The notes: a model not told the origin generated them from the letters alone. 64,000 nucleotides of DNA from an uncultured Candidatus Saccharibacteria bacterium (GCA_964482735.1 CAYZYV010000001.1:80172-144171); one strand, 5' to 3'. Shown: positions 15,695 to 52,243, counted from the stretch's first letter. Program-made: numbers and translations.

Positions 15695-15697
15695 AAA

Positions 15698-17049: not shown

Positions 17050-17168
17050 ATTTATATAAAAATTGAATTCAATTTAACGACCATAGTAATATGTTATATT
17101 ATATCATTCTTTGTATATAAAAAGCAAAATACCCAAGCTTTTAACTTGAGTATTTTTATTCCTAACTA

Positions 17169-17624: not shown

Positions 17625-17742
17625 ATTTATATAAAAATTGAATTCAATTTAACGACCATAGTAATATGTTATATTATATCATTCTTTGTATATAAAAAGC
17701 AAAACCCTCAAGTTTAAATTGAGGGTTTTATATATTTTGCTT

Positions 17743-18192
17743 TTAGCAATCGTAATCGTTGGCTCCTAGGTATCCTGTTATCTGTTTTGAAGCCCCTGTA
17801 GAATCTACGCACCATGAATTGGCAGAGCTTGTCTTTAAAGGAGAAGAGGCTGCCCAACTACCAGCTTGAGAATGACATATTACAGTAGTAGATGTTCCGG
17901 CGGTAGCTGGAGCTGTAACCACAGAAGTTGCTCCAGCGGCACTTTTTGCTGATTCCAACATAGCAGCCACAGGGCTGGTTGTTGTAGTACACAACGTCGC
18001 ATAACTATTGCTATTGTCGTCATAGTGCATCTCAGCTTGTGCTCTGATGTTCGATAAGTTGTTTTTAATCGCAGCATCTGCTCCTTTATTTCTAGCACTG
18101 TTTAATGATGCCAAAACAACTGAGGACAAGATACCAATGATTGCAATAACAACCAACAATTCGATCAATGTAAAACCTTTATTTTTGTTCAT
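17743..18192 (-). CDS. Type IV major pilin, paralog 3
   Basis: Same N-terminus, C-terminus divergent with a Cys pair. Terminator AAACCCTCAA-GTTTAAAT-TGAGGGTTT at 17705-17735. Confidence 0.8.
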   Translation of the reverse strand: MNKNKGFTLIELLVVIAIIGILSSVVLASLNSARNKGADAAIKNNLSNIRAQAEMHYDDNSNSYATLCTTTTSPVAAMLESAKSAAGATSVVTAPATAGTSTTVICHSQAGSWAASSPLKTSSANSWCVDSTGASKQITGYLGANDYDC

Positions 18193-18305
18193 ATTTTATA
18201 AAATTGAATTCAATTTAACGACCATAGTAATACGCTAATTATATCATTTTTTGTATATAAAAAGCAAAACCTCCAGTTTAGACTGGAGGTTTTGCTTTTT
18301 AATTA

Positions 18306-19517
18306 TTAGTTGATTCCACCTGCGATATTGTAAATTGGAAGCAAAATAGAAGACAAAAGCACACCAACTCCAAGCCCAAGAATAACAATCATAATCGGCT
18401 CAATCAAGCTAACTAAAGTGTCGACAGCTTCATTAACTTCTCGGCTATAGAATTTACCTAACGTCTTAAGAATATTTCCCAAAGAACCGGTTTCCTCCCC
18501 CACCTTGATCATTCCTGACATTATGGATGGTATTTCCTGGTGTTTACTGAAAGCTAAAGATAGAGAACTACCACTTTTTACAGAGTCCGCAATATCTCTA
18601 AGCAGTCTTTCGTAAACAAGATTACCTACCACAACACTTGTAAGTTCTATTGCCCTAACGATTGGAATACTAGCGGAAAGCATAGTATCCATATTGTCTG
18701 ATATTCTTGATAAATATAATTTATTATAAATATTTTTAACAACAGGCAATGTAATTTTTAATTTATCAAAATAAAGTCTACCAGATGGTGTTTTAGAATA
18801 TCTAATAACATACACCACGAGAACTATAACTATAACTAGCAAGAAAATACCATAATCCACAAACAAATTACTGACAGCGATAATCAATTTAGTAGAAAGA
18901 GGAATTTCTGTTCCAGATTCGGCAATAATAGCAGCGAGTTTAGGCACGATAAATGTAAACATCAAAACCATCACGATCACGAATATTCCGACAACGAAAG
19001 AAGGATAGATTAAAGCATTTTTTGTCTTGGAAGTAAGTTGATATTGTCTATCCAAATAGTCAGCTAAATATGCAAAAACCTGAGTTAATTTACCTGACTC
19101 CTCCCCTGACTTAACCATATTAACGTAAAAGTCAGAAAAAGCTTCTTTATGTTTTGACAATGCAACAGAAATATAAACTCCAGATTTAATATCTTCAGCG
19201 ACTTCATTAAGAATAGAAGCCAACTTTTTATTGGTGGTATTTTCGGCAATAAGATTAAAAGCTTTAAGGGCAGACACTTGTGATTCAAACAAAGTAGACA
19301 TCTGACGAGACATCATCACGATATCTTTCATGGGGATACTTTTCTTTTCAAAAATAGAAAGATTAAAAAGGCCTTTTTTCTTTGTTGTTTCAGTTAACGA
19401 AGAAACAATATAACCTCTTTTTTGAACAGCGGCAATCGCCAAATCCTTATTGATGGCCTCTACAGAACCAACCTTGCGTTCTCCTTCTGCTGTAATAGCT
19501 TCGTAATTAAATAACAT
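18306..19517 (-). CDS. pilC: Type IV pilus assembly platform protein (GspF/PilC family)
   Basis: 403 aa, two GspF repeats and three TM segments. Terminator hairpin at 18262-18300. Confidence 0.85.
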   Translation of the reverse strand: MLFNYEAITAEGERKVGSVEAINKDLAIAAVQKRGYIVSSLTETTKKKGLFNLSIFEKKSIPMKDIVMMSRQMSTLFESQVSALKAFNLIAENTTNKKLASILNEVAEDIKSGVYISVALSKHKEAFSDFYVNMVKSGEESGKLTQVFAYLADYLDRQYQLTSKTKNALIYPSFVVGIFVIVMVLMFTFIVPKLAAIIAESGTEIPLSTKLIIAVSNLFVDYGIFLLVIVIVLVVYVIRYSKTPSGRLYFDKLKITLPVVKNIYNKLYLSRISDNMDTMLSASIPIVRAIELTSVVVGNLVYERLLRDIADSVKSGSSLSLAFSKHQEIPSIMSGMIKVGEETGSLGNILKTLGKFYSREVNEAVDTLVSLIEPIMIVILGLGVGVLLSSILLPIYNIAGGIN

Positions 19518-19527
19518 AAAAATTTAA

Positions 19528-20589
19528 CTAAAACAATTGTTCTAGAGCTTTAGGATTAATAGAATGATCATACGCACTTTCAAGACTAATTTCTCTTCTT
19601 TGGACCAAATCTATTAAACATCTATTCATGTCGACCATGCCCTCTCTCGAGGAAGTTTCTAGTACTGTGTCTATTTCGTGTGTTCTCTTTTCTCTTATTA
19701 AGTTTGCGATTGCTTTGTTATTTATCAAAAGTTCATAGGCAGGAACTCTTCCCCCTGAAACTCTTGGTATCAATCTCTGAGAGAAAATTCCGAGCAAGCT
19801 GGATGCTAACTGCAATCTAATTTGATCTTGTTGGTCTGATGGGAACGAGTCAATAATACGATCTATTGTTTGAGAAGCATTATTAGTATGAAGAGTAGAT
19901 AAGACCAAGTGTCCTGTCTCAGCTGCTGTCACAGCTGCTGCAATAGTTTCTGGATCCCTCATTTCTCCTATCAAAAGAACATTGGCATCCTCACGAAAAG
20001 CAGACTTAAGAGCACTCAAGAAAGTTTCAGTATCTGTTCCTACTTCTCTTTGACTAATTATTGATTTATCTGGTTTATAAATAAATTCAATAGGTTCTTC
20101 AATCGTTACTATGTGTCTAGATGATTCACTATTAATAAAATTTATCATTGTAGACAATGTAGTTGATTTACCTTGACCAACCGGACCAACCACCAAGAAG
20201 AATCCTTGTTTCTTCCTAGAAAAATCTTTAAGTATTTCGGGCAAGCTTAATTCTTCAAAAGTTTTTGGCTTTGGAATTAGACGAAGAGCCACTGAGGGAG
20301 TTCCTCTTTGGTAAAAAGCATTTCCTCTTAGCTGAGTTTGTCCTTCATTTAAATTGCTAGAGAAATCTATAACTTTATTTTTTCTAAAAATAGCAATCCT
20401 CTCTTGATCCAAAAGTACTTCAAGTATTCCAAAAACGTCCGCTTCTGTTGTCTCTTTGAAATTTACAAGAAAGATAAGTTCTCCATCTATTCGAATAGAT
20501 GGTTTAATACCAGTTCCTATGTGTAAATCGGAACCGTTTTGATTAATTAAATTTTCCAATAAATCATTAAATAGCTGCTTGTAGTCCAT
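19528..20589 (-). CDS. pilT: Twitching-motility / pilus retraction ATPase
   Basis: 353 aa. Walker A GPVGQGKSTT, Asp box, Walker B and His box typical of PilT-type secretion ATPases. Confidence 0.8.
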   Translation of the reverse strand: MDYKQLFNDLLENLINQNGSDLHIGTGIKPSIRIDGELIFLVNFKETTEADVFGILEVLLDQERIAIFRKNKVIDFSSNLNEGQTQLRGNAFYQRGTPSVALRLIPKPKTFEELSLPEILKDFSRKKQGFFLVVGPVGQGKSTTLSTMINFINSESSRHIVTIEEPIEFIYKPDKSIISQREVGTDTETFLSALKSAFREDANVLLIGEMRDPETIAAAVTAAETGHLVLSTLHTNNASQTIDRIIDSFPSDQQDQIRLQLASSLLGIFSQRLIPRVSGGRVPAYELLINNKAIANLIREKRTHEIDTVLETSSREGMVDMNRCLIDLVQRREISLESAYDHSINPKALEQLF

Positions 20590-20623
20590 ATGAAGTAATT
20601 ATACTATATCGAAAGTTATTTTG

Positions 20624-22411
20624 CTAGAAATTATAAACTTCTTGCAATGGAATTTCTCCTTTTATGCTTTTTATGATTGCATCTTCCTTAATAGTTAACA
20701 TCCCTTTCTTTCTGGCAATTTTATAAATTTCTTGTTCTTGTGGAGTTTTTAAAATAATCCCTTGCATTTCTTTATCTACCATAAAACCTTCGAAAAGAGC
20801 AATACGTCCAGATAGTCCAGTAGGGTTGTCTTGGCTTGGTTGCGCTTCGTAAATAGTATTGCTGTTAATATTGAGTTTGCTCTTATATTCCTCTGGTAAA
20901 TCTTCAAATTGCTTATCAATAGCATGTCTCACTGACTCGTCTATAGGAATTTCATGTTTACAACTAGGATGAATTCTCCTTGCTAGTCTTTGAGCCATAC
21001 AAAGAATCAAAGTTGGTGCTATCAAATAAGGGTCAATTCCCATATCGATAAGACGAGGTATCGCTCCGACAGCACTATTCGTGTGAAGAGTAGAGAAAAC
21101 CAAGTGACCTGTAAGAGCGGCTTGAATAGCTAGTTCTGCTGTTTCCCTGTCTCGGATCTCTCCAACAAGAATGATGTTTGGGTCTTGACGAAGAATGGAT
21201 CTCAATCCTGTAGCAAAAGTATATCCAATTTCAGGCATGATTTGAGACTGGTTAACTCCATCAATCTTGTATTCAACCGGATCTTCTAGCGAAACGATAT
21301 TTTTATCTTCTTTATCTATCTCACTAAGCATCGAATAAAGAGAAGATGTCTTACCTGAACCAGTTGGTCCTGTCATTAATATGAGACCATAAGGTTTCTT
21401 TAGCGCAGTTCTAATCATTTTGATATTCTCTTCTGAAAGTCCAAGTCCTTCGAGTGTAAAGATACCCTTCTCTGCATCCAAGATACGAATAGCTATTTTT
21501 TCTCCGTAATAAGCTGGCATTGTAGAAACACGGAAGTCAATCTTTCTTTCATCTATTCTTGCGGAAAAACCCCCATCTTGTGGTTTCCTTTTTTCATCTA
21601 GTCTCAATTTTGACAAGATTTTGACACGAGCAATCACTCCATTATAAACAGATATTGGAAGAACAAGAGAGGTGTGGAGAACACCATCTATTCTAAATCT
21701 AACCTTAACTTTATCGCCAGAATTTTCTATGTGAATATCGGATGCTAAACTTTCTACGGCACTTCTTAGAATAACTGCTACGATTTTTATAATCGGAGCA
21801 TCTTCAACAATTTTTTCTTCTTCCCCCGGTTTTAGAGTGTCCGATGTCTTAGAGTTTTCTATTACAACACCCTGATCAATCGCATTCGCAATTTCAGAGT
21901 CAAGCTCATTTAAGGCCTGATCAACCTCAATATCTTTATTTCCTTCGTAAGCATAAACCAAATTACGATAGGAAGAATTTTTGATTAAGTAAAGTTTAAA
22001 GGGCTTATTTAATTTAGCCGTAATAAACGTAAGGGCATCAACAGCTCTAACATTTTCGGGATTAACGATACCAACTTCTAGATAAGTATCAGTTAAACTA
22101 ATAGGAACAAACTTGTATGTTTTTGCTGCATCTACTGGAATAAGCTTTAGAGTTGCAGCTGGAACTTTTTTAACATCTATATCTTTTATTGGTATACCAA
22201 AAATAGCCTTTCTTGCTTCAAGGATTTGGTCTTCATCGACTTTAAGCTCAGTCAAAGCATCATCTAAATCACCATTATATTTCTCATCTGCGAGTTTTAA
22301 AGCCTTTGATTCAAGGGCATCATCTATTACCCCTCTTTTTTTTAACTCTTCTATAAATAACATACTAATTTGTTGCAAAAGACACTGTGTCTCCACAGTA
22401 AGAGATTCCAT
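20624..22411 (-). CDS. pilB: Type IV pilus assembly ATPase (GspE/PilB family)
   Basis: 595 aa. N-terminal GspII-like domain, Walker A GPTGSGKT and a tetracysteine-like region. Confidence 0.85.
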   Translation of the reverse strand: MESLTVETQCLLQQISMLFIEELKKRGVIDDALESKALKLADEKYNGDLDDALTELKVDEDQILEARKAIFGIPIKDIDVKKVPAATLKLIPVDAAKTYKFVPISLTDTYLEVGIVNPENVRAVDALTFITAKLNKPFKLYLIKNSSYRNLVYAYEGNKDIEVDQALNELDSEIANAIDQGVVIENSKTSDTLKPGEEEKIVEDAPIIKIVAVILRSAVESLASDIHIENSGDKVKVRFRIDGVLHTSLVLPISVYNGVIARVKILSKLRLDEKRKPQDGGFSARIDERKIDFRVSTMPAYYGEKIAIRILDAEKGIFTLEGLGLSEENIKMIRTALKKPYGLILMTGPTGSGKTSSLYSMLSEIDKEDKNIVSLEDPVEYKIDGVNQSQIMPEIGYTFATGLRSILRQDPNIILVGEIRDRETAELAIQAALTGHLVFSTLHTNSAVGAIPRLIDMGIDPYLIAPTLILCMAQRLARRIHPSCKHEIPIDESVRHAIDKQFEDLPEEYKSKLNINSNTIYEAQPSQDNPTGLSGRIALFEGFMVDKEMQGIILKTPQEQEIYKIARKKGMLTIKEDAIIKSIKGEIPLQEVYNF

Positions 22412-23039
22412 TTATTTTTGCACAGGCTTTGTAAAAATATACTGTCTTTGATTTTAATTCTGAAATACTTTTTAGAAATGTTCCTACCATTGATTGTTGC
22501 TTAACAACACTAGTTGAGCTTCCTAAAGCTTCTGTTTCTCCATATTCAAAATAAGTTTCTGTTACCCCCTCTGTAGTAGCAAGAGATCCATTCAAAACAG
22601 CCGTTTTGTCGGTAATTTGAGTAGCTTGGCTTGTAGAAACAAACTCTGTGATAACACTTTTAGCTACAGCAGACTCATCTATAGGAGCAAATGGGTTTTG
22701 GCGTCCTGGTGTTGCTGTACCGATAGACACAGAATTGCTTTTTAGTTTTTTGAAGAGATTGTTGCTGAAAAAATTGATATCTATTTTTATATTTTTTAAA
22801 GAAGCCAAAGTCGACAGGAAGGAAATGTCTGAGCTTATTTTACTATTTAAGGATGAACCTTGATCAGCTGTCTTTGTATCTTCTGCGGCTGTAGCACTAG
22901 ATGATAAATTACCTTGAGCAACCTTTACCACCTCTCCTGTTCTTAATTCATTGGCAAAATACAAATAACCAACACCCAAAACCACAATAGAGAATGCTGT
23001 TAGAAAAAATTTACTTTTATTTGAGCGTTTCTTTTTCAT
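22365..23039 (-). CDS. Hypothetical secreted/membrane protein within the T4P locus
   Basis: N-terminal TM. No motif recognised. Its 3' end overlaps the pilB start by 47 nt. Confidence 0.35.
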   Translation of the reverse strand: MKKKRSNKSKFFLTAFSIVVLGVGYLYFANELRTGEVVKVAQGNLSSSATAAEDTKTADQGSSLNSKISSDISFLSTLASLKNIKIDINFFSNNLFKKLKSNSVSIGTATPGRQNPFAPIDESAVAKSVITEFVSTSQATQITDKTAVLNGSLATTEGVTETYFEYGETEALGSSTSVVKQQSMVGTFLKSISELKSKTVYFYKACAKINGISYCGDTVSFATN

Positions 23040-23040
23040 A

Positions 23041-23679
23041 TTATTTTAGCCAGTAGGTTTCTACTTTTAATGAATATTTATAAATACTTGGATCTATGAT
23101 TGTCTTCTTTTTTTGATCAACTAAAGGATCTTGAGATCCTGAATCTGGTACATTGAAAGAAATTGATTTAACGTCTACTATTCTTAGATTGTTTTCTAGG
23201 TCTTGTAAAAAGTCTAAGAAAACTCCATATTTACCTTCAATTGTAAATGAAATTGGGAAGATTCCATAAGGCAAGTAACTTGATGGGTCATTTTCTGCCA
23301 CTGCCTTTCCTCCAGCACCAGAAGAACTTCCACCTTCTGTAGAATTAGCCTTTATTCCTACCGAAGAATCAAATCTAATATCACTAATCGGCATACCGTG
23401 CATATTTGCAATTTTCTCTATTTCTAATATCAATTCGATATTATTTATAGTGCTAGGAAGTAAGTGATTTAACTTTTCTCTGTCTTTTTCATTGATTTGC
23501 TTATATGAGTCAACAAGTTCGTCTCTTGTCTTTTGTAAATCTGTCGAATTGTTAAGCGCTGAGTTATAGGTAGTTACGTTAGTTCTTAGTTCTTTAACAT
23601 CACCATAAAGCGGATCTATCAAAAAGAAAAATACCAATACGGAAGCTGTTAAGAATAAAATTGAAGAAATTAATTTCAT
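23041..23679 (-). CDS. PilO-like pilus biogenesis protein
   Basis: N-terminal TM followed by a coiled-coil (DVKELRTNVTTYNSALNNSTDLQKTRDEL). Sits between a pilN-like gene and pilB. Confidence 0.5.
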   Translation of the reverse strand: MKLISSILFLTASVLVFFFLIDPLYGDVKELRTNVTTYNSALNNSTDLQKTRDELVDSYKQINEKDREKLNHLLPSTINNIELILEIEKIANMHGMPISDIRFDSSVGIKANSTEGGSSSGAGGKAVAENDPSSYLPYGIFPISFTIEGKYGVFLDFLQDLENNLRIVDVKSISFNVPDSGSQDPLVDQKKKTIIDPSIYKYSLKVETYWLK

Positions 23680-23682
23680 ATA

Positions 23683-24366
23683 CTATATTGTTGGTTCTTC
23701 TGAATCATTGCTTGGTAATTTCGACTCAATTTCAACATTCTTATTTTGATCAGATACTTCTTCAGATGTTGATTTGACTGATGGAATCATTAAATTCTTT
23801 TCGTATGACAAAAGCTCAGGTTCTATCTCAAAAGATAGATTGAAAGATATGTAGTTATTCTTATCTCTCGTCAAATCAGAAAATAGCACATTCTTAAATG
23901 ATCGTCCTTTTGTAGTATTAAAAGCATCAGATTGTTGAGCAATCGAGCGATAGTCTTTGGCTATACCTTTTATGCTAACAGCATGTGCATTAGTCCCAGA
24001 TTGATATTCAAAAGTCCTGTATTGAACAGATGGGATGGTTATTTCTGACAACCTACTAAATAACGGGGTCAAAACTATATGCCCTGCTAGAATTTTAGTT
24101 GCCGCCTCTGATCTCTTGTTAAACAATTCGAGCTCTTCTAGGGTATCTTTTTCAAAAGTATCTCTCGTCTTAGAAAGAGATGATGAAAGACTGCTTTCTT
24201 GCTTGATTAAATAAGTTTTATATAAATAAATACCACCAGAAGCCAATAGGGTAACAATAAACAAAAATAAAGCTATCATAGTAAATAAGCTTCTTGGCTC
24301 TTTAGAGGCACCTGTTGAGGATATTTCTTTTTTAGGTATGAAAGATGTTTGAAATGAATTGTCCAT
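23683..24366 (-). CDS. PilN-like fimbrial assembly protein
   Basis: Short cytoplasmic N-terminus, one TM (LFTMIALFLFIVTLLASGGIYLY) and a periplasmic domain. Directly downstream of pilM. Confidence 0.5.
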   Translation of the reverse strand: MDNSFQTSFIPKKEISSTGASKEPRSLFTMIALFLFIVTLLASGGIYLYKTYLIKQESSLSSSLSKTRDTFEKDTLEELELFNKRSEAATKILAGHIVLTPLFSRLSEITIPSVQYRTFEYQSGTNAHAVSIKGIAKDYRSIAQQSDAFNTTKGRSFKNVLFSDLTRDKNNYISFNLSFEIEPELLSYEKNLMIPSVKSTSEEVSDQNKNVEIESKLPSNDSEEPTI

Positions 24367-24372
24367 ATTTTA

Positions 24373-25506
24373 TTAAGATAATTGATGAAGTGCTAAACCT
24401 AAGGCTACCGAAAATTCAGGTCCACTAGTTTGCAATACGGGCTGTATAAAAGCAGGAGTTTCTGTCTTGGAAAAAGGATCTGCATAAACAACATCAGAAC
24501 GGAAATTTTCTCTTGATGCCTCAAGAAAACCTTTTAGCATAGAACCTCCTCCAGTTAAAAATATTTTACTGACATCTCTATTATACTTCTTTTGATAATT
24601 AAAAACAATACTATTTATATCTGTGTATATGTATTGAATGGACATTTTAACAATTTTTTCTATCCTAGGATCCATAGAGGCATCTAACCCCACACTTCTC
24701 TTCAATCTTTCTGCTTCATCAAAAGTTAGATTGAGGGATTGAGAGATATTTCTAGTAATATCTTGTGAACCTCTGTTTACCACGTGAAAAACTCGAAGAA
24801 TCCCATTTTCAATTATGGAAACTTTAACTTTAGATGCACCAAAGTCTATGATCATAACAGGGGCTAGTTCGTGTCCTAGTATAGACCTTATATTACTAAA
24901 TATCTCCATTTCAAGTGATTCACAAACAAGAGATGTTTTTTTAACAATATCTTTGTATTGGGCTATCGTGTCGTTATGAATAGCCACAACCAAAACATCT
25001 ATTTTATCTTTCATCCTATTCTCCTCTTTTGTTTCTTCAAACGAACCTCCATCATCTGGAATTACAAACCAATCAAGGGTAACTTCTGATATCGGAACGG
25101 GAATATATTTTCTAGCTTCTATTGGAATTATTTTAGCCATCTCCCCTTCAGCGATTTTGTTGGGTAAAGATAGCGTAAAAATTAAACTCGAAAGTGACGG
25201 AATTGAAACGACAGCATTGTTGATAGTAACATTTGATTCTTTCATTAAATCAGTAATTGCTTTCGCCACATCTTCAGATTTTAGATTAGTCACACTTCCA
25301 ACTTCAGTTTTATTATAGGGACCAAGGGCTAAAACTCCGTATGTTTCTAGTACGGGTTTACCTCCTTTCTTTTTGAGCTGGACAATTTTCACGTAAGAAG
25401 AACCTATGTCAACTCCGATAGCTTGTTTTTTTGAGCTATCATCTCTAAAAGATTTAATCAGTCCAGACAAACCTTCTTTAATAATTTTCTTAAATGACTC
25501 ATCCAT
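24373..25506 (-). CDS. pilM: Type IV pilus assembly protein PilM (actin-like ATPase)
   Basis: GVDIGSSYVKIVQL phosphate-1 motif, FtsA/PilM fold length. Confidence 0.8.
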   Translation of the reverse strand: MDESFKKIIKEGLSGLIKSFRDDSSKKQAIGVDIGSSYVKIVQLKKKGGKPVLETYGVLALGPYNKTEVGSVTNLKSEDVAKAITDLMKESNVTINNAVVSIPSLSSLIFTLSLPNKIAEGEMAKIIPIEARKYIPVPISEVTLDWFVIPDDGGSFEETKEENRMKDKIDVLVVAIHNDTIAQYKDIVKKTSLVCESLEMEIFSNIRSILGHELAPVMIIDFGASKVKVSIIENGILRVFHVVNRGSQDITRNISQSLNLTFDEAERLKRSVGLDASMDPRIEKIVKMSIQYIYTDINSIVFNYQKKYNRDVSKIFLTGGGSMLKGFLEASRENFRSDVVYADPFSKTETPAFIQPVLQTSGPEFSVALGLALHQLS

Positions 25507-35450: not shown

Positions 35451-35485
35451 ATTATCACTTTGAAACGGCCGTCAGATATGATAAT
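35451..35485. promoter_or_regulatory. Palindromic site ATTATCA-N19-TGATAAT containing the AACGGCCGTCAGAT core, upstream of the wHTH gene
   Basis: Inverted arms around the CGGCCG palindrome. A near-copy lies downstream of the gene at 36011-36049. Confidence 0.5.
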
Positions 35486-35494
35486 ATATAAAGT

Positions 35495-35992
35495 ATGAAA
35501 AATGATATTAGTTTAAATGTTGAAGATAAATTACAAAGTATTGGTGATTTATTAATAGCAATGCTTTGTAGCGCTAGAAATTCAAAACGTTTTCGTTCTA
35601 TAATTAGAGAAAGAGAGTTTATGAGATACAACAAGGAAAGTGTTCGCGTTTCCCTAACTAGACTAAGCAAGAAAGGATATGTAAGAAATTTAAACGGTGA
35701 GTGGAAAATAACCGATAAAGGAAAAAAATACTCACAATTTAATAACAAAAATGAATACATGTCTTCACCTTTTGAGAAAAGAGCAGAATGTAATACTATT
35801 TTATCTTTTGATATTTCAGAAAACTCAAGAAAAATAAGAAACTGGCTTAGAAACCAACTAAAAATTTTTGGGTATAAAATGCTACAGCAAAGTCTTTGGA
35901 TTGGACCAGGACCATTACCTCAAGAATTTCTAAAAAAACTTAAAGAATTAAAAATTCGTGAAAATATAAAAATATTCACAGTTAGTAAATAA
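35495..35992 (+). CDS. Winged-helix DNA-binding protein with C-terminal Cas2/VapD-like motif (paralog A)
   Basis: wHTH pattern VSLTRLSKKGYVRNLNGEWKITDKG. C-terminal ILSFDISENSRKIRNWLRNQLKIFGYKMLQQSLWIGPGPLP resembles Cas2 beta1-alpha1-beta2 (YDI...R..L..L..G.R.Q.SVF). Paralog at 50916-51395. Confidence 0.5.
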   Translation: MKNDISLNVEDKLQSIGDLLIAMLCSARNSKRFRSIIREREFMRYNKESVRVSLTRLSKKGYVRNLNGEWKITDKGKKYSQFNNKNEYMSSPFEKRAECNTILSFDISENSRKIRNWLRNQLKIFGYKMLQQSLWIGPGPLPQEFLKKLKELKIRENIKIFTVSK

Positions 35993-36010: not shown

Positions 36011-36049
36011 TTATTATCATTATTAACGGCCGTCAGATGATGATAATAA
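36011..36049. repeat. Second copy of the AACGGCCGTCAGAT palindromic site (TTATTATCAT-N16-ATGATAATAA)
   Basis: Perfect 10-bp inverted arms. Direct repeat of the site at 35451-35485. Confidence 0.5.
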
Positions 36050-44541: not shown

Positions 44542-45963
44542 TTAACATTCAAGATAGACAGTCTCCCCTGCAACAGGGGCTCTAGCCTTTACACCAAGAG
44601 AATCATTAATCCTCTGTGCAAGAAACATGGCTGATTTCGGTTCTCCCATCACTGCATAAACCTTTTCTAGGGTTTTAGAATTTTCTTCTACAAAAGATAA
44701 CAGTCTATCAGAATCTTTATGTCCAGAATATCCATCTATAAAAACAACTCCAGCCTTTACCTTCACTTCCGCTCCCATTATGCGTATCTTTTTAGCTCCA
44801 TCTTGGATAGTTCTTCCAAGAGTCCCCATTGTTTGATAACCAGTAAGCAAGAGGGTGTTTTTCCGATCTGGAAGATAGTTTCTTTCGTGATGCAAAATTC
44901 TTCCACCGTTAGACATTCCACTACCAGCTATCACTATCTTAGGTGGAGGTACTTCTAAAATCCCCTTTGACTCTTCAGTTTCTGGTGTTTTTCTTAAACC
45001 TGGAAAATCAAAAAGTTGATCACCTGAAGCAATTAATTTTTTGGCAGTTTCATTGAAATAGTCTCCGTACTTTAAGTAGATATTAGTTAACTTAATAGAA
45101 AGCGGTGAATCCAAATAAATAGGCATTTGAGGGACTATTTTATTCTCGACTAGAGAGTTTATTTCATATAACAGTTCTTGTGTTCGTTCCAAAGAAAAAG
45201 TTGGGATAATTAATGTTCCACCTTTTTTATAATTATCTTTGATAATTTTTTCAAGTTTGTGTTTTCTTTCTGTTCTTTCTTCGTGATTTCGATCACCATA
45301 AACAGATTCCATAATTAGATAGTTAACATCTTTCAAAACTTCTGTATCTGGCAAAAGAGGAGATGGAGAATTCCCAAGGTCTCCTGTAAAAACTATTTTT
45401 TTATCATTATAAACAAGCTCTAGCATACCTGATCCTAGTATGTGCCCAGCATCTCTAAAAACAAATTTAAAACCATGGTCAACATTAATCTCTTGTCCAT
45501 ATTTAACTGTCTCCCAAAGTTCAAAAGCCCTGTCTACATTCTTGTGAGTAAATATATCTTCAATAATAGGATCCTCATCTCTCAATAGTAACTGAGCGGT
45601 ATCGGACAACATTTCTCTTGTAATAAATTTAGTAGGTTCTACAGAGATTATTTTACCCTTAAAACCTTCATGAATAAGCTTGGGAATACGTCCAATATGA
45701 TCAACATGGCTGTGGGTTACAAATAAAATATCAATCTCACTGGCATCGTATGGAAATTTTGTCCAGTTTAATTCATCAATAAATTTTTCCCCCTGAATTA
45801 ATCCACAATCAATCAAAAATTTCTTACCATTCCCTTCTAAAAGAAAATTAGCCCCAGTAACTGTTCCCGCTCCAGAGCAAAACGTTAGCTTTAGATTTTT
45901 ATCTTTTTCCATTCCTCTATTATACACAATCGTGTTAAAAAAATGAAATAAAAAATCCCCCAC
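44542..45963 (-). CDS. Beta-CASP family metallo-beta-lactamase-fold ribonuclease (RNase J-like)
   Basis: HSHVDHIGRIP (HxHxDH) motif, then beta-CASP motifs and C-terminal H. Confidence 0.7.
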   Translation of the reverse strand: MGDFLFHFFNTIVYNRGMEKDKNLKLTFCSGAGTVTGANFLLEGNGKKFLIDCGLIQGEKFIDELNWTKFPYDASEIDILFVTHSHVDHIGRIPKLIHEGFKGKIISVEPTKFITREMLSDTAQLLLRDEDPIIEDIFTHKNVDRAFELWETVKYGQEINVDHGFKFVFRDAGHILGSGMLELVYNDKKIVFTGDLGNSPSPLLPDTEVLKDVNYLIMESVYGDRNHEERTERKHKLEKIIKDNYKKGGTLIIPTFSLERTQELLYEINSLVENKIVPQMPIYLDSPLSIKLTNIYLKYGDYFNETAKKLIASGDQLFDFPGLRKTPETEESKGILEVPPPKIVIAGSGMSNGGRILHHERNYLPDRKNTLLLTGYQTMGTLGRTIQDGAKKIRIMGAEVKVKAGVVFIDGYSGHKDSDRLLSFVEENSKTLEKVYAVMGEPKSAMFLAQRINDSLGVKARAPVAGETVYLEC

Positions 45964-46257: not shown

Positions 46258-46788
46258 CTAAAGGCTTTTGGAATCAGTATTTTTTCTTTGAGTAAATTTC
46301 TCATAAACCGTCTCATAAGAATACAATTCTGGTTCTGAAAACCAGTAATCAATCTCCTTTTCTGCGTCTTCTTGACTACCTGAAGCATGAATAATGTTGC
46401 ATATTCCAACTTTTTCACTATCTGCATAATCAAAACTAATGTGTGCATAATCTCCTCTGATAGTTCCAGGCAAAGAAGCCTTTGGCTCTGTGACCCCTAC
46501 CATCTTTCTAACCATAGCGACAGCCTCTATTCCTTCTATAACGAAAGCAATAACAGGACCTTCACACATCATTCTAACTGTCATATCAAAAGCTTCTTGA
46601 CCTCTTCTCGTTATCATCTTGCCTATTTCTTCATAATGATGATAATAATGCTTCTGACTAGGTTGCAACATTTTAGCTCCAACAATTTTAAAACCAGCTC
46701 TTTCGAAACGAGTTAAAATTTCTCCAACGATACCTCTCTGGACTGAATCTGGTTTAAACACAATCAAAGTTCTCTCTATTTTTGCCAT
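46258..46788 (-). CDS. ndk: Nucleoside diphosphate kinase
   Basis: ERTLIVFKPDSVQRGIVGEILTRFERAGFKIV and NIIHASGSQEDAEKEIDYWF, with the active-site His in NIIHAS. Start trimmed to MAKIERT. Confidence 0.85.
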   Translation of the reverse strand: MAKIERTLIVFKPDSVQRGIVGEILTRFERAGFKIVGAKMLQPSQKHYYHHYEEIGKMITRRGQEAFDMTVRMMCEGPVIAFVIEGIEAVAMVRKMVGVTEPKASLPGTIRGDYAHISFDYADSEKVGICNIIHASGSQEDAEKEIDYWFSEPELYSYETVYEKFTQRKNTDSKSL

Positions 46789-46857
46789 ATAAAAAATATA
46801 TTCATGATTAACTAAGTAATAAGTAAAAAATAGCACAAAAACCCCAAAAAACAAAAT

Positions 46858-49602
46858 TTAATTTCTGTATTTGTCGAGTATTTCATCCTCCACTTCTTCT
46901 CTTGGCCTTCCATATTTTAGATAGGATAATTCTTTAATTTTTTCTACTATATCCGGATTACCACTTTCAAGAAGTGTGTAGTGAGATCTCATACTAAATG
47001 GTCTTACGGGAACACCGTTAATTAGCATGCTCACATATGAACAGAAATTATCGAGTTTCATAATATCAGATGAAGTAAAATTTGGACTTAGTCGAGACTC
47101 TAGTACTTTTGCATCCTCCTGACTTATTCTATATACGATCATAGAACCGACGTTACCAAAAACAGCGTTCTTAATAGATTCTTCTAATTGTGCTACGTAT
47201 TGGTGAGCTACTGTTAGAGAAAGATGATATTTACGAGCTTCAGAAAGTATTGAGGCAATAGAATCAGTTGTTACGTTTTGGAATTCATCTATGTATAAAT
47301 AAAAATCATTCATTTTTTGACCATACATATCTACACGAGACATCGCTGCCATTTGAATTTTACCAACAAGCAATAACCCAATTAAGTTTGCGTTTATTTC
47401 TCCTAGTCGCCCCTTAGCCAAGTTGATTAACAATATCTTTTTATTGTCCATTATTTCTCTAAAATTAAATACAGACTTTTCTTGCAAAACCACAGGCCTC
47501 ATAATATCGTTCGATATAAAATTATCAAATTTTGAAGTAATATACGGAATAAAGTTGGCAATAGATTGATCTCCTGTTGTTTTCTCAGCATTAGTCCAAA
47601 ATTCTCTAATTATTGGATTTCGACATTTAGCTAGGAGTGAATCTCTGTATTCCTTATTACCCAAAACTCGAGTAATATCGAGAAGAGTAGCATGATTTTC
47701 TGGGTCATCCATCGCTAAGAAGGCGCTATTTTTGAAGTATTGTTCAAACATCGGGCCTCCCGTTGTCTTCATATCAAATAATTTATTAAATATACCCATT
47801 AGTTCATTGACCACAAAAGTTTTCTGTTCTGGATATTTAGGATCATATTCAAGCATGTTTAATCCCATAGGTCTCGCTGTATATGAAGGATCGAAATAGA
47901 TAACATCATCTATTCTTTCTTTTGGAATATGACTTAAGATATCTTGGACATCACTTCCATGTGGGTCGATAAAACAACAACCGTTACCGTTTTTGATATC
48001 CTGAATTATCATGTTCTTCAATATCGTTGTCTTACCTGTACCAGTTTGACCTATCACATAAAGGTGTCTTAGCCTATCCTCTGGGGTTATGAAGATTTTA
48101 GTATCCTTACCTCTGTATGAGTTTATTCCAAGCAACAAACCATCTTCCCCCATTTCAAGAGGAGCAGGGCCGTCACCAGCTTTTGATTGTTTTAATTGAG
48201 GGGACTTAATTCCATAAGGAAAGTGGAAGATTGTTGAAAGCTCTTTTAGGTTTAGTGGCATTGAATCATCTTCTGAATAACTTCGATAAGAATACAACCT
48301 GATTAGATTTGCTAAAGAAGATCCTTTGGTTCTTTCAAATTTAAAACCATTTTTATTGGCTTCGCTAAATTGATTAAACGAAGACTCTAGCTCAGACATT
48401 AGCTGATTTGCCCGATCTTCATTTTCAGCTGAAACAACAACCCTGATATTAACCCCCATTACCATACCTTTTGTTTTTTCTTCTATCGATTCGAGGGCTT
48501 TTTCGTCTATTTTTTTATCTTCTTTTTTATCCTTTTCTTCTGTTGAACTAGAAAATAAACCTTTCACAAAAGAACCCATTTCTTTTCTTAAGGTATACCC
48601 AAATGAAGCAGTTGCATCTTTTACAGAAACACCTTTTTTGACTTCTTCTTTGATGCTATTAAACCTCTTTATCGTAGAATCATCTTTCGGACAAATTAAA
48701 AATTGAATTGAGGCTCCCTCACCTTTTCTTTTTAATTTTGAGAAAATATTTAAGATTATATTTAAAGGATCATATTCTAAGAAGTCGTAAGTTTTTATAG
48801 GAAAGACTTCGTAGGATGAGAGCTTGGCTTTAGAAGCTTCAATATGACCATTCTCTGTAAAGATGTTATAGTCATCTGGAACTTCTATAATTTTCGCATC
48901 TAAATGAACCCCTAAAAGTTGTTTTTCAAAAAGATCTGCTTTCTTGGAAGGAACTGCAACATAAATAACAAAATTCTCTGAATTTTCAGGCTGTGCTATT
49001 TCTATCGTAAAATGCCTTTCTTCCTTGTTGTCTCTGTCATCACCGACAGATTGCATCCCAGCATAAAATTGTTCCATGGCCCCCAATAACTCTTTTAAGG
49101 ACTTTTTATTACCTTCCTTATCTTCCATTTCTGGTAATGAGACTTCAAACAATTTCATGTCTAGAGTTTTAAATAGCGGAGTCCCTTCTTTCAAACCGGG
49201 TATATTACTTGTTGTAGCTAGATACTGAACTAGGAAACGATGAAAATCGTCATCCAAATGAGGGTTATTTAACTTCATCACCAAGGCTAAGGTATTAGAG
49301 ATACCCTTCTCAGTTAAAATTCCAAAAAGTTCTTCTATTTTTTTATCATGTTCTTCTGGGTGGAGTTTGAGAACCAATTTTTCTAGCTCTAGTTCTTTAA
49401 TAACAACTTTTTTTTCTAGCACTTCTTTCGGTTCATATTTTTTATATTCGGAAACGACTTGTTCTGCCAAAGATTCTTTATTGGTTTTTTCTCCAGCCTC
49501 TCTCAATACTTTTTCTCTCTCTGCAATGTGTGCTCGCAAAAAAGCAAGCTCTTCTTCCGGGCTTTTAAATTTCGGCGCATTGTTTAAATTTAATCCTTCC
49601 AT
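46858..49602 (-). CDS. Large AAA-like ATPase of the VirB4/TraG/HerA (DUF87-type) class with a ~450-aa unique N-terminal region
   Basis: C-terminal half has Walker A VIGQTGTGKTT, Walker B LYIDEFQNV and a conserved VAHQ. Spacing and context resemble type IV secretion / conjugation ATPases. The N-terminal half has no recognisable motif. Confidence 0.55.
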   Translation of the reverse strand: MEGLNLNNAPKFKSPEEELAFLRAHIAEREKVLREAGEKTNKESLAEQVVSEYKKYEPKEVLEKKVVIKELELEKLVLKLHPEEHDKKIEELFGILTEKGISNTLALVMKLNNPHLDDDFHRFLVQYLATTSNIPGLKEGTPLFKTLDMKLFEVSLPEMEDKEGNKKSLKELLGAMEQFYAGMQSVGDDRDNKEERHFTIEIAQPENSENFVIYVAVPSKKADLFEKQLLGVHLDAKIIEVPDDYNIFTENGHIEASKAKLSSYEVFPIKTYDFLEYDPLNIILNIFSKLKRKGEGASIQFLICPKDDSTIKRFNSIKEEVKKGVSVKDATASFGYTLRKEMGSFVKGLFSSSTEEKDKKEDKKIDEKALESIEEKTKGMVMGVNIRVVVSAENEDRANQLMSELESSFNQFSEANKNGFKFERTKGSSLANLIRLYSYRSYSEDDSMPLNLKELSTIFHFPYGIKSPQLKQSKAGDGPAPLEMGEDGLLLGINSYRGKDTKIFITPEDRLRHLYVIGQTGTGKTTILKNMIIQDIKNGNGCCFIDPHGSDVQDILSHIPKERIDDVIYFDPSYTARPMGLNMLEYDPKYPEQKTFVVNELMGIFNKLFDMKTTGGPMFEQYFKNSAFLAMDDPENHATLLDITRVLGNKEYRDSLLAKCRNPIIREFWTNAEKTTGDQSIANFIPYITSKFDNFISNDIMRPVVLQEKSVFNFREIMDNKKILLINLAKGRLGEINANLIGLLLVGKIQMAAMSRVDMYGQKMNDFYLYIDEFQNVTTDSIASILSEARKYHLSLTVAHQYVAQLEESIKNAVFGNVGSMIVYRISQEDAKVLESRLSPNFTSSDIMKLDNFCSYVSMLINGVPVRPFSMRSHYTLLESGNPDIVEKIKELSYLKYGRPREEVEDEILDKYRN

Positions 49603-49889
49603 CCTGTAGTGAATTTTTTAATTAAATAATAATTATATTATTTGTATTATACCATTATTACTAATTTAAAAATACCTCTTTGAAACGCTCCTCTGGGAGT
49701 CGTTTCTAAGAGGATGTAATAAATGAATAAATGTAAAATTCTAGGCTTACCCCTATACCTATATTTTTATTATTCTGTTTACAGAATATAATCACATAAC
49801 TCCAACTTATTTTAAACATATAGTTTTATATCTTATTCCAACATGTTTTTAAAAACTATAAAAATATAGGTGTGTGGGCGAGGACACCA

Positions 49890-50696
49890 CTAACGAACAC
49901 ACCTAACATAGTTCCCGATACCCTGACTGCGGTCGCTCAAGCCACCACTGACCATGCTCTGGTAGTAAGCGAGCGAGAGAGGCGAAGACGGGACGGGGGT
50001 AGAAGACCAATAGTAGCTCGCAACGAAACCTATTGGTGCCCATGGATCGGCATCTCCATCAGAAGAAGCTTTTGAATTCCATGCATGAGATAAAGTTCTT
50101 GCTTGTTCAATAGAGGGAAGTTTGCCTCCATTTTTAGCACAGGCATCTGCTGCAACATATACACCGCTTGTACTATCTTTCCATGCCATAGTTCGATCTG
50201 TAGTTCTGTTTGTTCCATCTATTTCTACTCCATGAGTATCCCATTTAACTACTCCATTTTCATCTACAGACCATGCTTTTAGTTCACCTGCGTCATATAT
50301 GAGTGCAGTGGCTCCGAAACGTTGATAGATATCGGAAGTGGAATTACTATAACTAAAACATTTAACAATGATTCCTTGGTCAATAAGAGGTTGAACAATT
50401 TTAGCTAAATTACCACTGGTAGAATCTCCAAAGCCTCCATCTTCCTTTAAACCTGTACATGTTAAATTTGCATATCCAACGTTAGACCCTTCAAAGCTAC
50501 CTTTTGTTAACTGATTTAACGCCGCTTGATTATATAGCTGTTTTAAAGTTGATTTAATAGTAGCAATCTTTCCTTTTTCTCTTGCAGAATTTAGCGAGGC
50601 GATAACTACAGCAGAAAGAATTCCGATAATAGCGATGACCACTAGTAACTCAATCAACGTAAATGCTTTGTTGGATTTTAGAGATTCTTTTTTCAC
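49890..50696 (-). CDS. Type IV pilin-like N-terminus fused to a DUF1566 (Lcl C-terminal-like) domain
   Basis: N-terminal KAFTLIELLVVIAIIGILSAVVIASLNSAREKGK prepilin motif. C-terminal WSSTP...YVRCVR is the DUF1566 ending. The 3'-terminal 150 bp are strikingly GC-rich. Confidence 0.6.
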   Translation of the reverse strand: MKKESLKSNKAFTLIELLVVIAIIGILSAVVIASLNSAREKGKIATIKSTLKQLYNQAALNQLTKGSFEGSNVGYANLTCTGLKEDGGFGDSTSGNLAKIVQPLIDQGIIVKCFSYSNSTSDIYQRFGATALIYDAGELKAWSVDENGVVKWDTHGVEIDGTNRTTDRTMAWKDSTSGVYVAADACAKNGGKLPSIEQARTLSHAWNSKASSDGDADPWAPIGFVASYYWSSTPVPSSPLSLAYYQSMVSGGLSDRSQGIGNYVRCVR

Positions 50697-50874
50697 TTTT
50701 TTATTATACCACAGTAGCTCTAAAACTAAACACTTTTCCCCTAGGTCGGACCTAGGGGAATACCACAGTTTTGTCTAGAAATCTCCTTTGGTGTTCCTCA
50801 AAGGAGATTCTCATCCAAAACTGTTTGGTTACCCACTTAAACCTATAAGCTTAAAGACAACTCTTGGCTTTACC

Positions 50875-50910
50875 TCTCTACACTTTTACACAGGTGTGTG
50901 AAAGTGTAGA
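50875..50910. promoter_or_regulatory. 36-bp near-palindrome CTCTACACTTTTACACAGGTGTGTGAAAGTGTAGAG, between the wHTH gene and the pilin-DUF1566 gene
   Basis: Near-perfect dyad. A related copy (CACTTTTACACACCTGTGTGAAAATGTGAG) lies upstream of the wHTH gene at 51447-51476. Confidence 0.5.
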
Positions 50911-50915
50911 GAAGC

Positions 50916-51395
50916 TTAATAATTATTACTCGTTTTGAATATTTTAATGCAATCTTTAATCTTTATTTTTTTTAATCTACACAAGAATTCTTCTGGCAAT
51001 GGTCCAGGGCCCAACCAAAGACTTTGTTGCATCATCTCATATCCAAATATTTTCAACTGGCTCCTTAACCAATCTCTTGTTTTTCTCTGTGGACCGGGAA
51101 TATCAAAAGATATAATTGTGTTTTTGCGACTGTTCTTATTAAAAGGAGATACTATATAAGAAAACAGGTCATTACGAAGAGATTTTTTTATACCCTTTTT
51201 TGTTAATATAATTAAGTCTTCTTTTTTCTTTATATACCCATTATTTTTTAATCGATAAATAGCCATCCTTGATGATTGATTTTTATATCTTTCTTTTTCT
51301 AATCTGTTCATTATTTCTCTGAATCTTTTGGCGTTTTTACCACTAGATAACATAGCAATGATAAAATCAGAAATACTATTGTTAATTATGGGCAT
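50916..51395 (-). CDS. Winged-helix DNA-binding protein with C-terminal Cas2/VapD-like motif (paralog B)
   Basis: Clear paralog of 35495-35992. Shared blocks are ISFDI..R..R.WLR.QLKIFGY.M.QQSLW.GPGPLP.EFL and IKIF. Confidence 0.5.
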   Translation of the reverse strand: MPIINNSISDFIIAMLSSGKNAKRFREIMNRLEKERYKNQSSRMAIYRLKNNGYIKKKEDLIILTKKGIKKSLRNDLFSYIVSPFNKNSRKNTIISFDIPGPQRKTRDWLRSQLKIFGYEMMQQSLWLGPGPLPEEFLCRLKKIKIKDCIKIFKTSNNY

Positions 51396-51446
51396 AATCT
51401 ATAATTTGAATAGTTGATAAATTATCAAACCTTTTTCTAGTATTAT

Positions 51447-51476
51447 ACACTTTTACACACCTGTGTGAAAATGTGA
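51447..51476. promoter_or_regulatory. Upstream copy of the ACTTTTACACA..TGTGTGAAA dyad (putative operator of paralog B)
   Basis: Direct repeat of the site at 50875-50910, centred about 60 bp upstream of the paralog B start. Confidence 0.45.
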
Positions 51477-51478
51477 GA

Positions 51479-52243
51479 TTATTTAGTTAAAATTTCTGGT
51501 TTGTTCTTTGTTATTAAAATAGAGTGTTCAAAGTGAGCAGAGTTTTTACCGTCCCGGGTTCTGATTGTCCAATCGTCATCATCTACCTCTATTTGATGCG
51601 TCCCGAGACAAAGCATTGGTTCGATAGCTATTATCATACCTGGCACAAGTTTAGCTCCCTGCCCTTTCTTACCATAATTTGGAACATAAGGATCTTCGTG
51701 AATTTCCTTACCCACACCATGACCAGCTAAATCTCGAACTATCCCATATTTATTGTTCACAAAAGATTCTATAGCATACCCTATATCCCCTATTGTATTT
51801 CCCCCCACAGCGGCTCTAATTCCAACTTCTAGAGCCTTCTTGGTATCCTCTATTAATTTTTTATTTGAATCAGAAATTCTCCCTACAGCTACGGTCATCG
51901 CGTGGTCGGTAAATAGTCCCTTGTATTTCAAACCAATATCTATTGAAACAATATCTCCTTCTTTTAAGATTTTATTTTTACTTGGGATTCCATGAACAAT
52001 TTCATCATTAACTGATACACAAGCAGATGCGGGGAATGGTGTTCTCATTCCTTGCGGTCGATAATTAAGAAAGGCTGGAATGCCACCATATTCTTTAATC
52101 AAATCATAAACATATTTATCAATTTCCAATGTCGAAATACCAGGCTTAACCATCTTTGCAGTTTTAGATAAAACTTTGGCTATTATTTTGCCTCCTTCTC
52201 TTATCTTTTTTATTTCCTCTTTATTTTTAATTATTATATTCAT
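51479..52243 (-). CDS. map: Methionine aminopeptidase type I
   Basis: 254 aa, pita-bread fold metal ligands (D..D..H..E..E). HGVGKEIHEDP motif. Confidence 0.9.
   Translation of the reverse strand: MNIIIKNKEEIKKIREGGKIIAKVLSKTAKMVKPGISTLEIDKYVYDLIKEYGGIPAFLNYRPQGMRTPFPASACVSVNDEIVHGIPSKNKILKEGDIVSIDIGLKYKGLFTDHAMTVAVGRISDSNKKLIEDTKKALEVGIRAAVGGNTIGDIGYAIESFVNNKYGIVRDLAGHGVGKEIHEDPYVPNYGKKGQGAKLVPGMIIAIEPMLCLGTHQIEVDDDDWTIRTRDGKNSAHFEHSILITKNKPEILTK

Follow-up and report, generated by a model that had tools for sequence, protein, structure and literature searches.

Do three neighbouring genes on one strand of a bacterial chromosome form one machine, or do they merely lie side by side? The question is raised by a stretch of 64,000 nucleotides (the window) from an uncultured Candidatus Saccharibacteria bacterium (GCA_964482735.1, CAYZYV010000001.1:80172-144171), a genome of the candidate phyla radiation (CPR) with a G+C content of about 34%. 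The minus strand carries, in this order, map, a regulator gene, a pilin gene, an ATPase gene, ndk and the gene for a β-CASP RNase. The regulator (50916-51395, called paralog B) has 159 amino acids and consists of a winged helix-turn-helix (wHTH) followed by a Cas2-like domain (PaaX_M). The pilin gene (49890-50696), with a GTG start, encodes a prepilin of 268 amino acids with a C-terminal domain like Lcl_C/DUF1566. The ATPase gene (46858-49602), with an ATG start, encodes 914 amino acids.

An earlier note, made from the sequence alone, had joined the three genes into one candidate secretion or pilus-like module that could serve contact with a host or another cell. Its three open reading frames, its palindrome and its hairpins are all present where it placed them. 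The parts were also largely named correctly, as a wHTH regulator with a palindromic site, a fusion of a type IV prepilin with a DUF1566-like domain, and a P-loop ATPase of the class found in type IV secretion systems (T4SSs). It is the assembly of these parts that changes. With a probability of roughly three in four, the locus consists of two unrelated units, namely a core ATPase gene and a regulator and pilin inserted beside it.

An insertion beside a core gene

Evidence for the first unit is provided by the neighbourhood of the ATPase gene in other species. The sample comprised 80 species-representative loci with ATPases 50-72% identical to that of the window, 70 of them with enough flanking sequence. 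Upstream of the ATPase gene, map (51479-52243 in the window, minus strand) is found in 54 of the 70, within 300 nucleotides in 27; downstream, ndk (46258-46854, minus strand) is found in 57. The block runs map→ATPase→ndk in these relatives and closes the ribosomal-protein/secY block. Averaged over the species loci, the ATPase is 61.8% identical, against 62.5% for Map and 67.9% for SecY. Because the position between map and ndk is kept and the identity is comparable to that of Map and SecY, the ATPase gene behaves as a core gene. The close homologues all derive from metagenome bins of the Paceibacteria/Nomurabacteria type.

The regulator and the pilin do not share this position. None of the 80 loci has the trio. 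One contains a regulator homologue and one a homologue of the pilin-Lcl_C fusion, and neither adjoins the ATPase gene. Conserved order of all three genes is confined to near-identical strains (L089, 99% nucleotide identity). Among the informative relatives, the three closest have an ATPase with 83% identity, and there map abuts the ATPase gene with 46-82 nucleotides in between. Nucleotide homology between the window and these relatives ends at the map stop codon and restarts exactly with the start codon of the ATPase gene. A 98%-identical relative likewise becomes homologous exactly from this ATG onwards, and the gene upstream there encodes a different pilin, of the LamG type. Since homology breaks exactly at the map stop codon and the ATPase start codon, the intervening 1.9 kb or so (49603-51478) is a lineage-specific insertion at a strain-variable site.

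The inserted DNA varies even among close strains. The AT-rich spacer between the pilin and ATPase genes (49603-49889, 287 nucleotides, with a weak stem-loop at about 49686-49706) is found in near-identical strains only, and the 90 or so nucleotides nearest the ATPase gene (to 49693) are shared with a 93% relative, L003. Three independent assemblies end 6-22 nucleotides inside the pilin gene (the ends of L088, L090 and L091). In locus L092 (1-1319), the 3' end of the regulator gene, the palindrome that follows it, the spacer and the promoter are identical to the window, and another pilin allele comes next. The N-terminal half of this allele is nearly identical to that of the window pilin, its Lcl_C half has diverged, and its 3' flank differs. 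The site upstream of the ATPase gene is a hot spot where lectin-type pilins change between close strains, which makes it a candidate determinant of host range. A LamG-type pilin gene lies directly upstream of the ATPase gene in one very close strain (L087, 1-938).

The ATPase gene also has a promoter-like signal of its own. An extended -10 box, TGGTATAAT, lies 43 nucleotides upstream of its ATG (49646-49654, minus strand) and is likely to drive the ATPase gene only. In the six relatives inspected, a TGnTATAAT box precedes the ATPase gene while the upstream genes differ. The box is 7-8 nucleotides from the ATG in L084/L085, L087, L004 and L009 and about 40 nucleotides from it in L003; in L086, the closest box directly adjoins the ATG as annotated.

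Two observations weigh against a clean division into two units. A scan for intrinsic terminators called none between the three genes; as none was called in the 287-nucleotide spacer, transcription of the pilin gene may run on into the ATPase gene. In addition, the pairing of regulator and pilin recurs with the other pilin allele of L092, so some regulatory link between these two is plausible.

An ATPase of the coupling-protein type

Three regions can be distinguished in the ATPase. Residues 1 to about 140 are a helical extension, residues ~145-470 are the DUF8128 core, and residues ~480-914 are a P-loop domain of the kind found in type IV coupling proteins, or T4CPs (TrwB/TraD/VirD4). The last contains a Walker A motif, GQTGTGKT (residues 518-525), a Walker B motif, LYIDEF (769-774), and an ARKY...AHQ motif (789-801). 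The N-terminal half of about 450 residues had been called novel, but it corresponds to Pfam PF26449 (DUF8128). This annotation is precomputed on every close homologue, and nearly all of them also carry PF10412 and/or other T4CP-type domains. The window protein is assigned to DUF8128 by proxy, from the annotation precomputed on its listed homologues, all of which carry it, P0001 at 98% identity among them. Residues 1-470, used as a query, matched 1,021 representative clusters, in which full-length members have about 900-930 amino acids. A literature search on "DUF8128" found no paper.

Pfam models place the ATPase domain among the coupling proteins, with 28.1 bits for TrwB_AAD_bind (gathering threshold, GA, 20.5) and 22.9 bits for TraG-D_C (GA 22). 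The top NCBIfam matches are SXT_TraD, TOL_TraD and CD1115 VirD4-like, at scores short of the curated full-length cut-offs of the TraD, VirD4 and CD1115 models (52.4 vs 366, 36.7 vs 647 and 34.1 vs 250 bits). Profile comparison with hhalign matches the ATPase family to TrwB at 93.8% probability (E = 1.7e-7) and to TrwK/VirB4 at 12%, in the Walker A region only. Among VirB4 models, TIGR00929 gives 16.3 bits against a cut-off of 643 and Pfam CagE_TrbE_VirB is not matched. HerA/FtsK models also stay below cut-off (DUF87, 19.2 bits, cut-off 23.2; FtsK_SpoIIIE, 17.1 bits, cut-off 24), and no partner genes of such enzymes are found around the ATPase gene. The former description as VirB4/TraG/HerA-type is therefore right about the T4SS-class P-loop domain, but by sequence the protein is nearer to the T4CPs TrwB and TraD than to VirB4.

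The ATPase is a member of a family that combines DUF8128 with a T4CP-type ATPase domain, and its gene is a conserved chromosomal gene of Paceibacteria. T4CPs such as VirD4, TrwB, TraD, Cagβ and DotL are its top sequence and profile matches, and share with it the Walker A/B and ARK...HQ motifs and a helical insertion between the Walker motifs. Unlike the T4CPs, it is encoded by a core chromosomal gene without a relaxase or T4SS neighbourhood. Another difference lies at the N-terminus. Where TrwB has two transmembrane helices, the window ATPase has none and carries a soluble region of about 470 amino acids in their place. No transmembrane segment was found by Kyte-Doolittle analysis in 19-residue windows (maximum 1.42, threshold 1.6), which, applied in the same way to TrwB and to the Embleya homologue described below, showed two peaks and one, respectively. 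VirB4, as represented by TrwK of plasmid R388, has a similar size and a similar two-domain soluble architecture, but its sequence similarity to the window ATPase is confined to Walker A.

The best relative outside the CPR with the full architecture is a T4CP encoded on a plasmid of Embleya sp. NBC_00896 (WP_331738717.1, 812 amino acids). It is 25% identical to the window ATPase (E = 4e-58) over residues 207-898, which cover the DUF8128 core and the ATPase domain. The core of the N-terminal half (residues 207-480) can in this way be aligned to the T4CP of an actinobacterial plasmid T4SS cluster, whose neighbouring genes encode TrbL-like, PrgI, separate VirB4-like, replication-relaxation and NlpC/P60 proteins. 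The Embleya protein differs in having one transmembrane segment and in lacking the CPR-specific helical first ~140 residues. Because it aligns over the DUF8128 core, this core can be regarded as an ancestral feature of a T4CP subfamily in single-membrane bacteria.

An "ATP-binding protein" of 800 amino acids is encoded on the Clostridium sporogenes plasmid pRSJ11_1 (L175, 11839-14241) and on C. botulinum plasmids. It is about 23% identical to residues 209-911 of the window ATPase, has neither a Pfam match nor a transmembrane segment, and its annotated neighbours are unlike a T4SS cluster. This protein is possibly a further member of the family that lacks an anchor and occurs outside the CPR.

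The helical extension of the window ATPase contains an invariant cluster of His and Asp residues between positions 82 and 122 (P82, E83, H85, D86; P114, H115, D118, D119, H121, R122). The extension is missing in some family members and has no Pfam match. An HD-type hydrolase in the first 145 residues was considered and rejected, as Pfam gives no support for it.

Role of the ATPase

How can a coupling-type ATPase come to be a core gene outside any secretion cluster? Most likely, it descended from the coupling proteins of conjugative T4SSs in single-membrane bacteria, lost both its anchor in the membrane and its association with a relaxase, and became fixed between map and ndk. Judging from its family, it would be a ring-forming P-loop NTPase that recognizes a substrate, either DNA or protein, and pushes it. 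Docking to a presumed partner would be through the N-terminal domain, with a predicted fold like the VirB4 N-domain, instead of through transmembrane helices.

Structure models are the source of this last suggestion. AlphaFold models were made of the full-length ATPase (predicted local distance difference test, pLDDT, 75) and of the N-terminal half alone (pLDDT 77.5). In Foldseek searches, the top match of the full model is full-length TrwK/VirB4 (E = 3.5e-11), followed by HerA and by the T4CPs Cagβ and DotL; the match to Cagβ has a target-normalized template modelling (TM) score of 0.54 and a root-mean-square deviation of 5 Å. For the N-terminal half, TrwK/VirB4 is the sole family at E ≤ 0.001 and provides the 14 best matches, with E-values from 2e-4 to 2e-3. 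The models weakly suggest that the N-terminal half is VirB4-N-domain-like, which is a lead and not a classification.

The preferred reading, held tentatively and at slightly under even odds, is that the ATPase serves the near-universal, non-conjugative T4SS of Patescibacteria as a second ATPase that has become detached from it. T4CP homologues are present in 2,918 of 3,035 Patescibacterial genomes, and 148 of 5,713 such homologues lie near virB4 (PMC12102498). Genuine Patescibacterial virB4 is commonly found near dnaA and dnaN, with virB3/6/8 and trsD (PMC12102498). A direct connection to that survey is provided by P0106, which is 69% identical to the window ATPase and is the same protein as ETB64018.1 of Parcubacteria RAAC4_OD1_1. 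Table S3 of the survey lists ETB64018.1 as a T4CP by the CONJscan t4cp1 profile, with 87% coverage and VirB4 proximity "No" (PMC12102498).

Several points weigh against a role in the T4SS. There are no T4SS genes in the window; more widely, neither T4SS genes nor a relaxase, virB3, virB6 or virB8 are found in the window or around the ATPase gene in the 80 relatives, where the neighbours are housekeeping genes. The number of genomes with T4CP homologues, 2,918, exceeds the 2,417 with VirB4, which fits a T4SS-independent role equally well (PMC12102498). A t4cp homologue, known here by its t4cp label only, is dispensable in Ca. Southlakia epibionticum (PMC12102498). Finally, the likeness to the VirB4 N-domain is weak (TM 0.30-0.34, E about 2e-4, model pLDDT about 77) and lacks support from sequence.

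The strongest alternative is that the ATPase is a core cytoplasmic translocase that works without a T4SS, as a DNA motor in transformation or in chromosome handling or repair, its T4CP ancestry being historical. The odds are against this, yet it is a real possibility. It would account for the housekeeping rate of evolution and the housekeeping operon position, for the missing transmembrane segment and for the absence of relaxase and T4SS genes nearby. There is a weak NCBIfam match to the DNA-translocating CedD, and exaptation of Patescibacterial T4CP homologues, which are found in more genomes than VirB4, "cannot be ruled out" according to the authors of the survey (PMC12102498). Less easily explained is that no partner or substrate signal emerges from the surveyed loci, where the occasional upstream genes are not conserved. 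RAAC4_OD1_1 has two separate matches to the t4cp2 profile (PMC12102498), perhaps FtsK-like, in which case a candidate for a segregation motor would already exist there. The N-domain model, moreover, resembles a T4SS docking domain. Proposed conserved partners of the ATPase, namely a pair of genes for about 350-495 and about 96 amino acids and small acidic reading frames upstream, were rejected, as they occur in only two to three loci and none in the window.

With either role, a T4CP-derived ATPase without an anchor, located outside T4SS clusters, is kept as tightly as SecY and Map in ultrasmall, host-dependent bacteria. In the literature found, such ATPases receive no more than a brief mention, as T4CP homologues seldom encoded near virB4. 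Finding the partner of the ATPase would clarify how the Patescibacterial T4SS is energized, or would reveal a new core motor for DNA or protein.

The pilin and the type IV pilus

The pilin has the features of a type IV prepilin. It scores 32.7 bits against N_methyl (GA 21.2) and 31.2 bits against TIGR02532 (cut-off 16.3). Its leader is MKKESLKSNKA|FTLIE, with the cleavage motif KA|FTLIELLVVIAIIGIL, Ala at -1 and Glu at +5. Position -1 is Ala or Gly throughout the family, with Ala in about half of the aligned members, which suggests that Ala is tolerated for prepilin cleavage. The C-terminal domain matches Lcl_C/DUF1566 (PF07603) at 27.3 bits, below the GA of 34.9 (E = 4.9e-6; profile positions 10-117 of 117), and Cys80 and Cys266 are conserved. 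A search yielded 871 homologues; of the 120 that were listed, most have N_methyl together with a precomputed or annotated Lcl_C (PF07603); some are already named DUF1566 domain-containing in the source records. The window pilin is a typical member of this large and already annotated CPR family of pilin-DUF1566 (Lcl_C) fusions and differs from it in nothing of substance. The source contig (169 kb) contains three pilin-Lcl_C paralogues. Neither the window pilin nor the paralogues P0379 and P0361 are on record, according to exact database look-ups.

Residues 6-87 of the pilin are 51-65% identical to three tandem major pilins of a type IV pilus cluster elsewhere in the window (13785-25506, minus strand). 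This minus-strand cluster encodes PilM (24373-25506), PilB (20624-22411), PilT (19528-20589), PilC (18306-19517), the three pilins (16591-18192) and PilD (15698-16513), followed by two further pilin-like reading frames with prepilin N-termini (13785-15006). Because its N-terminus matches the major pilins of this cluster, the window pilin is most likely a substrate of the same pilus machine. The earlier note had suggested that it could belong to a system distinct from the pilus at 13-26 kb, a distinction that the shared N-terminus does not support. The pilin-lectin fusion would be made from a leaderless mRNA, cleaved by PilD and assembled by PilB and PilC. Its lectin-tipped product may serve as a variable adhesive subunit of the 13-26 kb pilus.

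A likely promoter for this leaderless mRNA is a second copy of the extended -10 box TGGTATAAT, located 6 nucleotides before the pilin GTG (50703-50711, minus strand). The 219 nucleotides upstream of the pilin gene had been described as a 220-bp leader with two perfect hairpins. Because the likely promoter box lies just before the GTG, this segment is better called the 3' region of the regulator gene. One of the hairpins is indeed perfect, with 12 of 12 pairs and a 1-nucleotide loop, TTCCCCTAGGTC-N-GACCTAGGGGAA (50736-50760; arms 50736-50747 and 50749-50760). The other (50765-50824; arms 50765-50790 and 50799-50824) has 26-nucleotide arms that are 81% complementary; it is perfect only in a 10-bp core, ATCTCCTTTG/CAAAGGAGAT, and its loop has 8 nucleotides and not 7. 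The 150 nucleotides upstream of the pilin gene have a folding energy of -55 kcal/mol (z = -6.2). Rfam has no family for these hairpins, either in a gathering-threshold search of the whole window or in an E-value search of 49550-51550 (best E = 0.18).

The TTCCCCTAGGTC-N-GACCTAGGGGAA palindrome is also present twice in an unrelated Paceibacteria locus (L025, 311-337 and 16597-16623). A dispersed palindromic element is one possible explanation, a common terminator another.

The regulator and its twin palindromes

The regulator shares with PaaX, the repressor of the phenylacetate catabolon, a wHTH followed by a Cas2-like middle domain. It scores 44.4 bits against PaaX_M (GA 24), which is the only model above its cut-off. 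At 159 amino acids it is half the size of PaaX, and the full-length PaaX model TIGR02277 gives 20.4 bits against a cut-off of 264.55, covering model positions 31-150 of 279 and leaving the C-terminal part unmatched. The protein accordingly does not qualify as a full PaaX-type repressor. Unlike the gene for PaaX, its gene has no paa genes nearby and carries a copy of its own palindrome on either side. A literature search for "PaaX" in Patescibacteria found no paper.

Only the downstream copy, reported at 50875-50910, had been recognized before. This copy, O2, extends over 50875-50912, with arms at 50875-50892 and 50895-50912 that are 94% complementary. The upstream copy, O1 (51442-51474, minus strand), overlaps the regulator promoter (TTCACA, 16 nucleotides, TATAAT; 11 of 12 matches). 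The palindrome pattern matches the window at 50879-50907 and 51446-51474 and is found in 0 of 100 shuffles; the folding z-score of the palindrome is -7.4. The window contains no further operator site except one weak match at 45920-45939.

The same layout is found around other members of the family. Paralog A, 52% identical, lies downstream of recG (35495-35992, plus strand) between palindromes at 35451-35486 and 36012-36047, and a homologue in L001 (4099-4693) is arranged alike; each has a different palindrome. Among 70 metagenome loci tested (from L094-L173), the best-scoring 45 were inspected, and in all 45 one site of about 36-40 bp occurs on both sides of the PaaX_M-like gene. Scores above the 95th percentile of a null distribution, which is inflated, were reached by 22 loci. 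The start-to-start spacing of the twin sites in the best 45 is 494-556 bp, except for two loci (621 and 637), and is 567 bp between O1 and O2. The outer arms are common to the family, of the type TTATCAC...TGATAA, and the core varies by paralogue (ACGGCCGT, ACACCTGT, CCGGCCGG or CGATCG). At its end, the upstream copy has a -10-like TATGATAAT; downstream, the copy in most cases reads TTTGATAA and is usually located between convergent genes.

Autoregulation is the simplest reading of this arrangement, and the regulator most likely represses its own promoter through O1. The gene downstream of the regulator homologue is convergent in 54 of 60 loci and a pilin gene in none; because a pilin is never the downstream neighbour in these 60 loci, the family is not dedicated to pilins. 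To our knowledge, no such twin-palindrome PaaX_M-like cassette has been described before. These regulators offer a clean, testable operator case in bacteria whose transcription control is barely known.

One unlikely reading combines two proposals. The DUF8128 + T4CP ATPase would be a domesticated coupling protein and a core, T4SS-independent motor of Paceibacteria, for instance in DNA uptake during transformation or in chromosome handling, with a VirB4-like N-domain in place of the anchor. Separately, the twin-palindrome PaaX_M-like genes would possibly be self-contained regulatory or insulating cassettes.

Doubtful, too, and a weaker contender, is the idea that regulator, spacer and pilin together make up an expression site, both regulated and recombining, whose variable adhesin pilins would follow a logic like that of pilin antigenic variation. 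The PaaX_M-like protein would then control the pilin through O2 and the structured spacer. Such a site is favoured by L092, where the sequence from the regulator 3' end to the promoter is identical and the pilin diverges in its Lcl_C half, and by the three pilin-Lcl_C paralogues on the source contig. The assemblies that break at the 5' end of the pilin gene agree with it too, although a repeated pilin 5' sequence could also explain the breaks, and the differing 3' flank of L092 allows for a paralogous locus or a chimera. A pilin gene diverges from the regulator operator region in 3 of 54 metagenome loci, but the downstream gene is never a pilin gene in the 60 related loci mentioned above, and paralog A lies beside recG and a tRNA gene, with no pilin. 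O2 itself is about 170 nucleotides upstream of the pilin -10 box and does not overlap the promoter.

A single module or a defence system

The proposal that gave rise to the question can now be weighed. It holds that regulator, pilin and ATPase are one dedicated system for contact with a host or other cell, in which the ATPase powers display or secretion of the pilin independently of the 13-26 kb pilus. Assembly of type IV pilins is the work of PilB-type ATPases together with PilC and PilD, and no T4CP or VirB4 is known to assemble pilins with class III signals; both points count against it. PilB, PilC and PilD are all encoded in the very cluster whose pilins resemble the window pilin at the N-terminus. 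In its favour, the three genes are adjacent on the same strand and the arrangement is kept in near-identical strains (L089). Saccharibacterial T4SS clusters, furthermore, include pilin genes (PMC10633639); the T4SS-linked pilins of Patescibacteria are VirB2-like and belong to another class (PMC12102498).

Synteny largely refutes a single module. The trio is absent from all 80 species-level loci and from the 83% relatives, the 98% relative has a different pilin at the site, and the ATPase gene has a promoter box of its own in all contexts inspected. The proposal is accordingly very improbable. The earlier note had named two outcomes that would tell against it, a trio syntenic in no relative and an ATPase of the housekeeping HerA/FtsK type. 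On the first, synteny was found only in near-identical strains; on the second, the ATPase proved to be T4CP-like and not of the HerA/FtsK type. For annotation, the lesson is that adjacency in one CPR genome is no proof of a secretion module here.

Least credible of all is a place for the ATPase in an anti-phage defence system (HerA-like or like mad8 of MADS) or a mobile element. In its favour are PADLOC matches to mad8 (E = 1.3e-11) and HerA models, and the presence of HerA defence complexes among the fold matches. The PADLOC matches, however, span the shared P-loop domain only, partner genes of these systems are absent, and a single-copy core gene that keeps its place between map and ndk in 80 species is unlike a defence island, which is normally variable.

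Further observations

TGnTATAAT boxes lie 5-8 nucleotides before the starts of several unrelated genes of the window, at 354, 3981, 16530, 30142, 32819, 50711 and 53669. The short distance from box to start codon points to frequent use of leaderless mRNAs in this genome.

The three tandem major pilin genes (16591-18246) are near-identical. Their N-terminal 31 residues are identical (MNKNKGFTLIELLVVIAIIGILSSVVLASLN), conservation extends to about residue 48, and the C-termini are variable. A separate promoter box precedes each gene, and between box and gene lies a near-identical untranslated leader of about 48 nucleotides.

The weak operator match at 45920-45939 has 2 mismatches to the paralog B operator and closely precedes the position at which the β-CASP RNase gene (44542-45963, minus strand) probably starts in reality. 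It may reflect merely a shared -10-like TGTATAA.

A second variable spot of the housekeeping block is the interval between an AA-kinase gene and map. In L005-L008, L014, L021, L027 and L037 it contains one to three tandem genes for about 565-597 amino acids, which have no family assignment; the window has none there.

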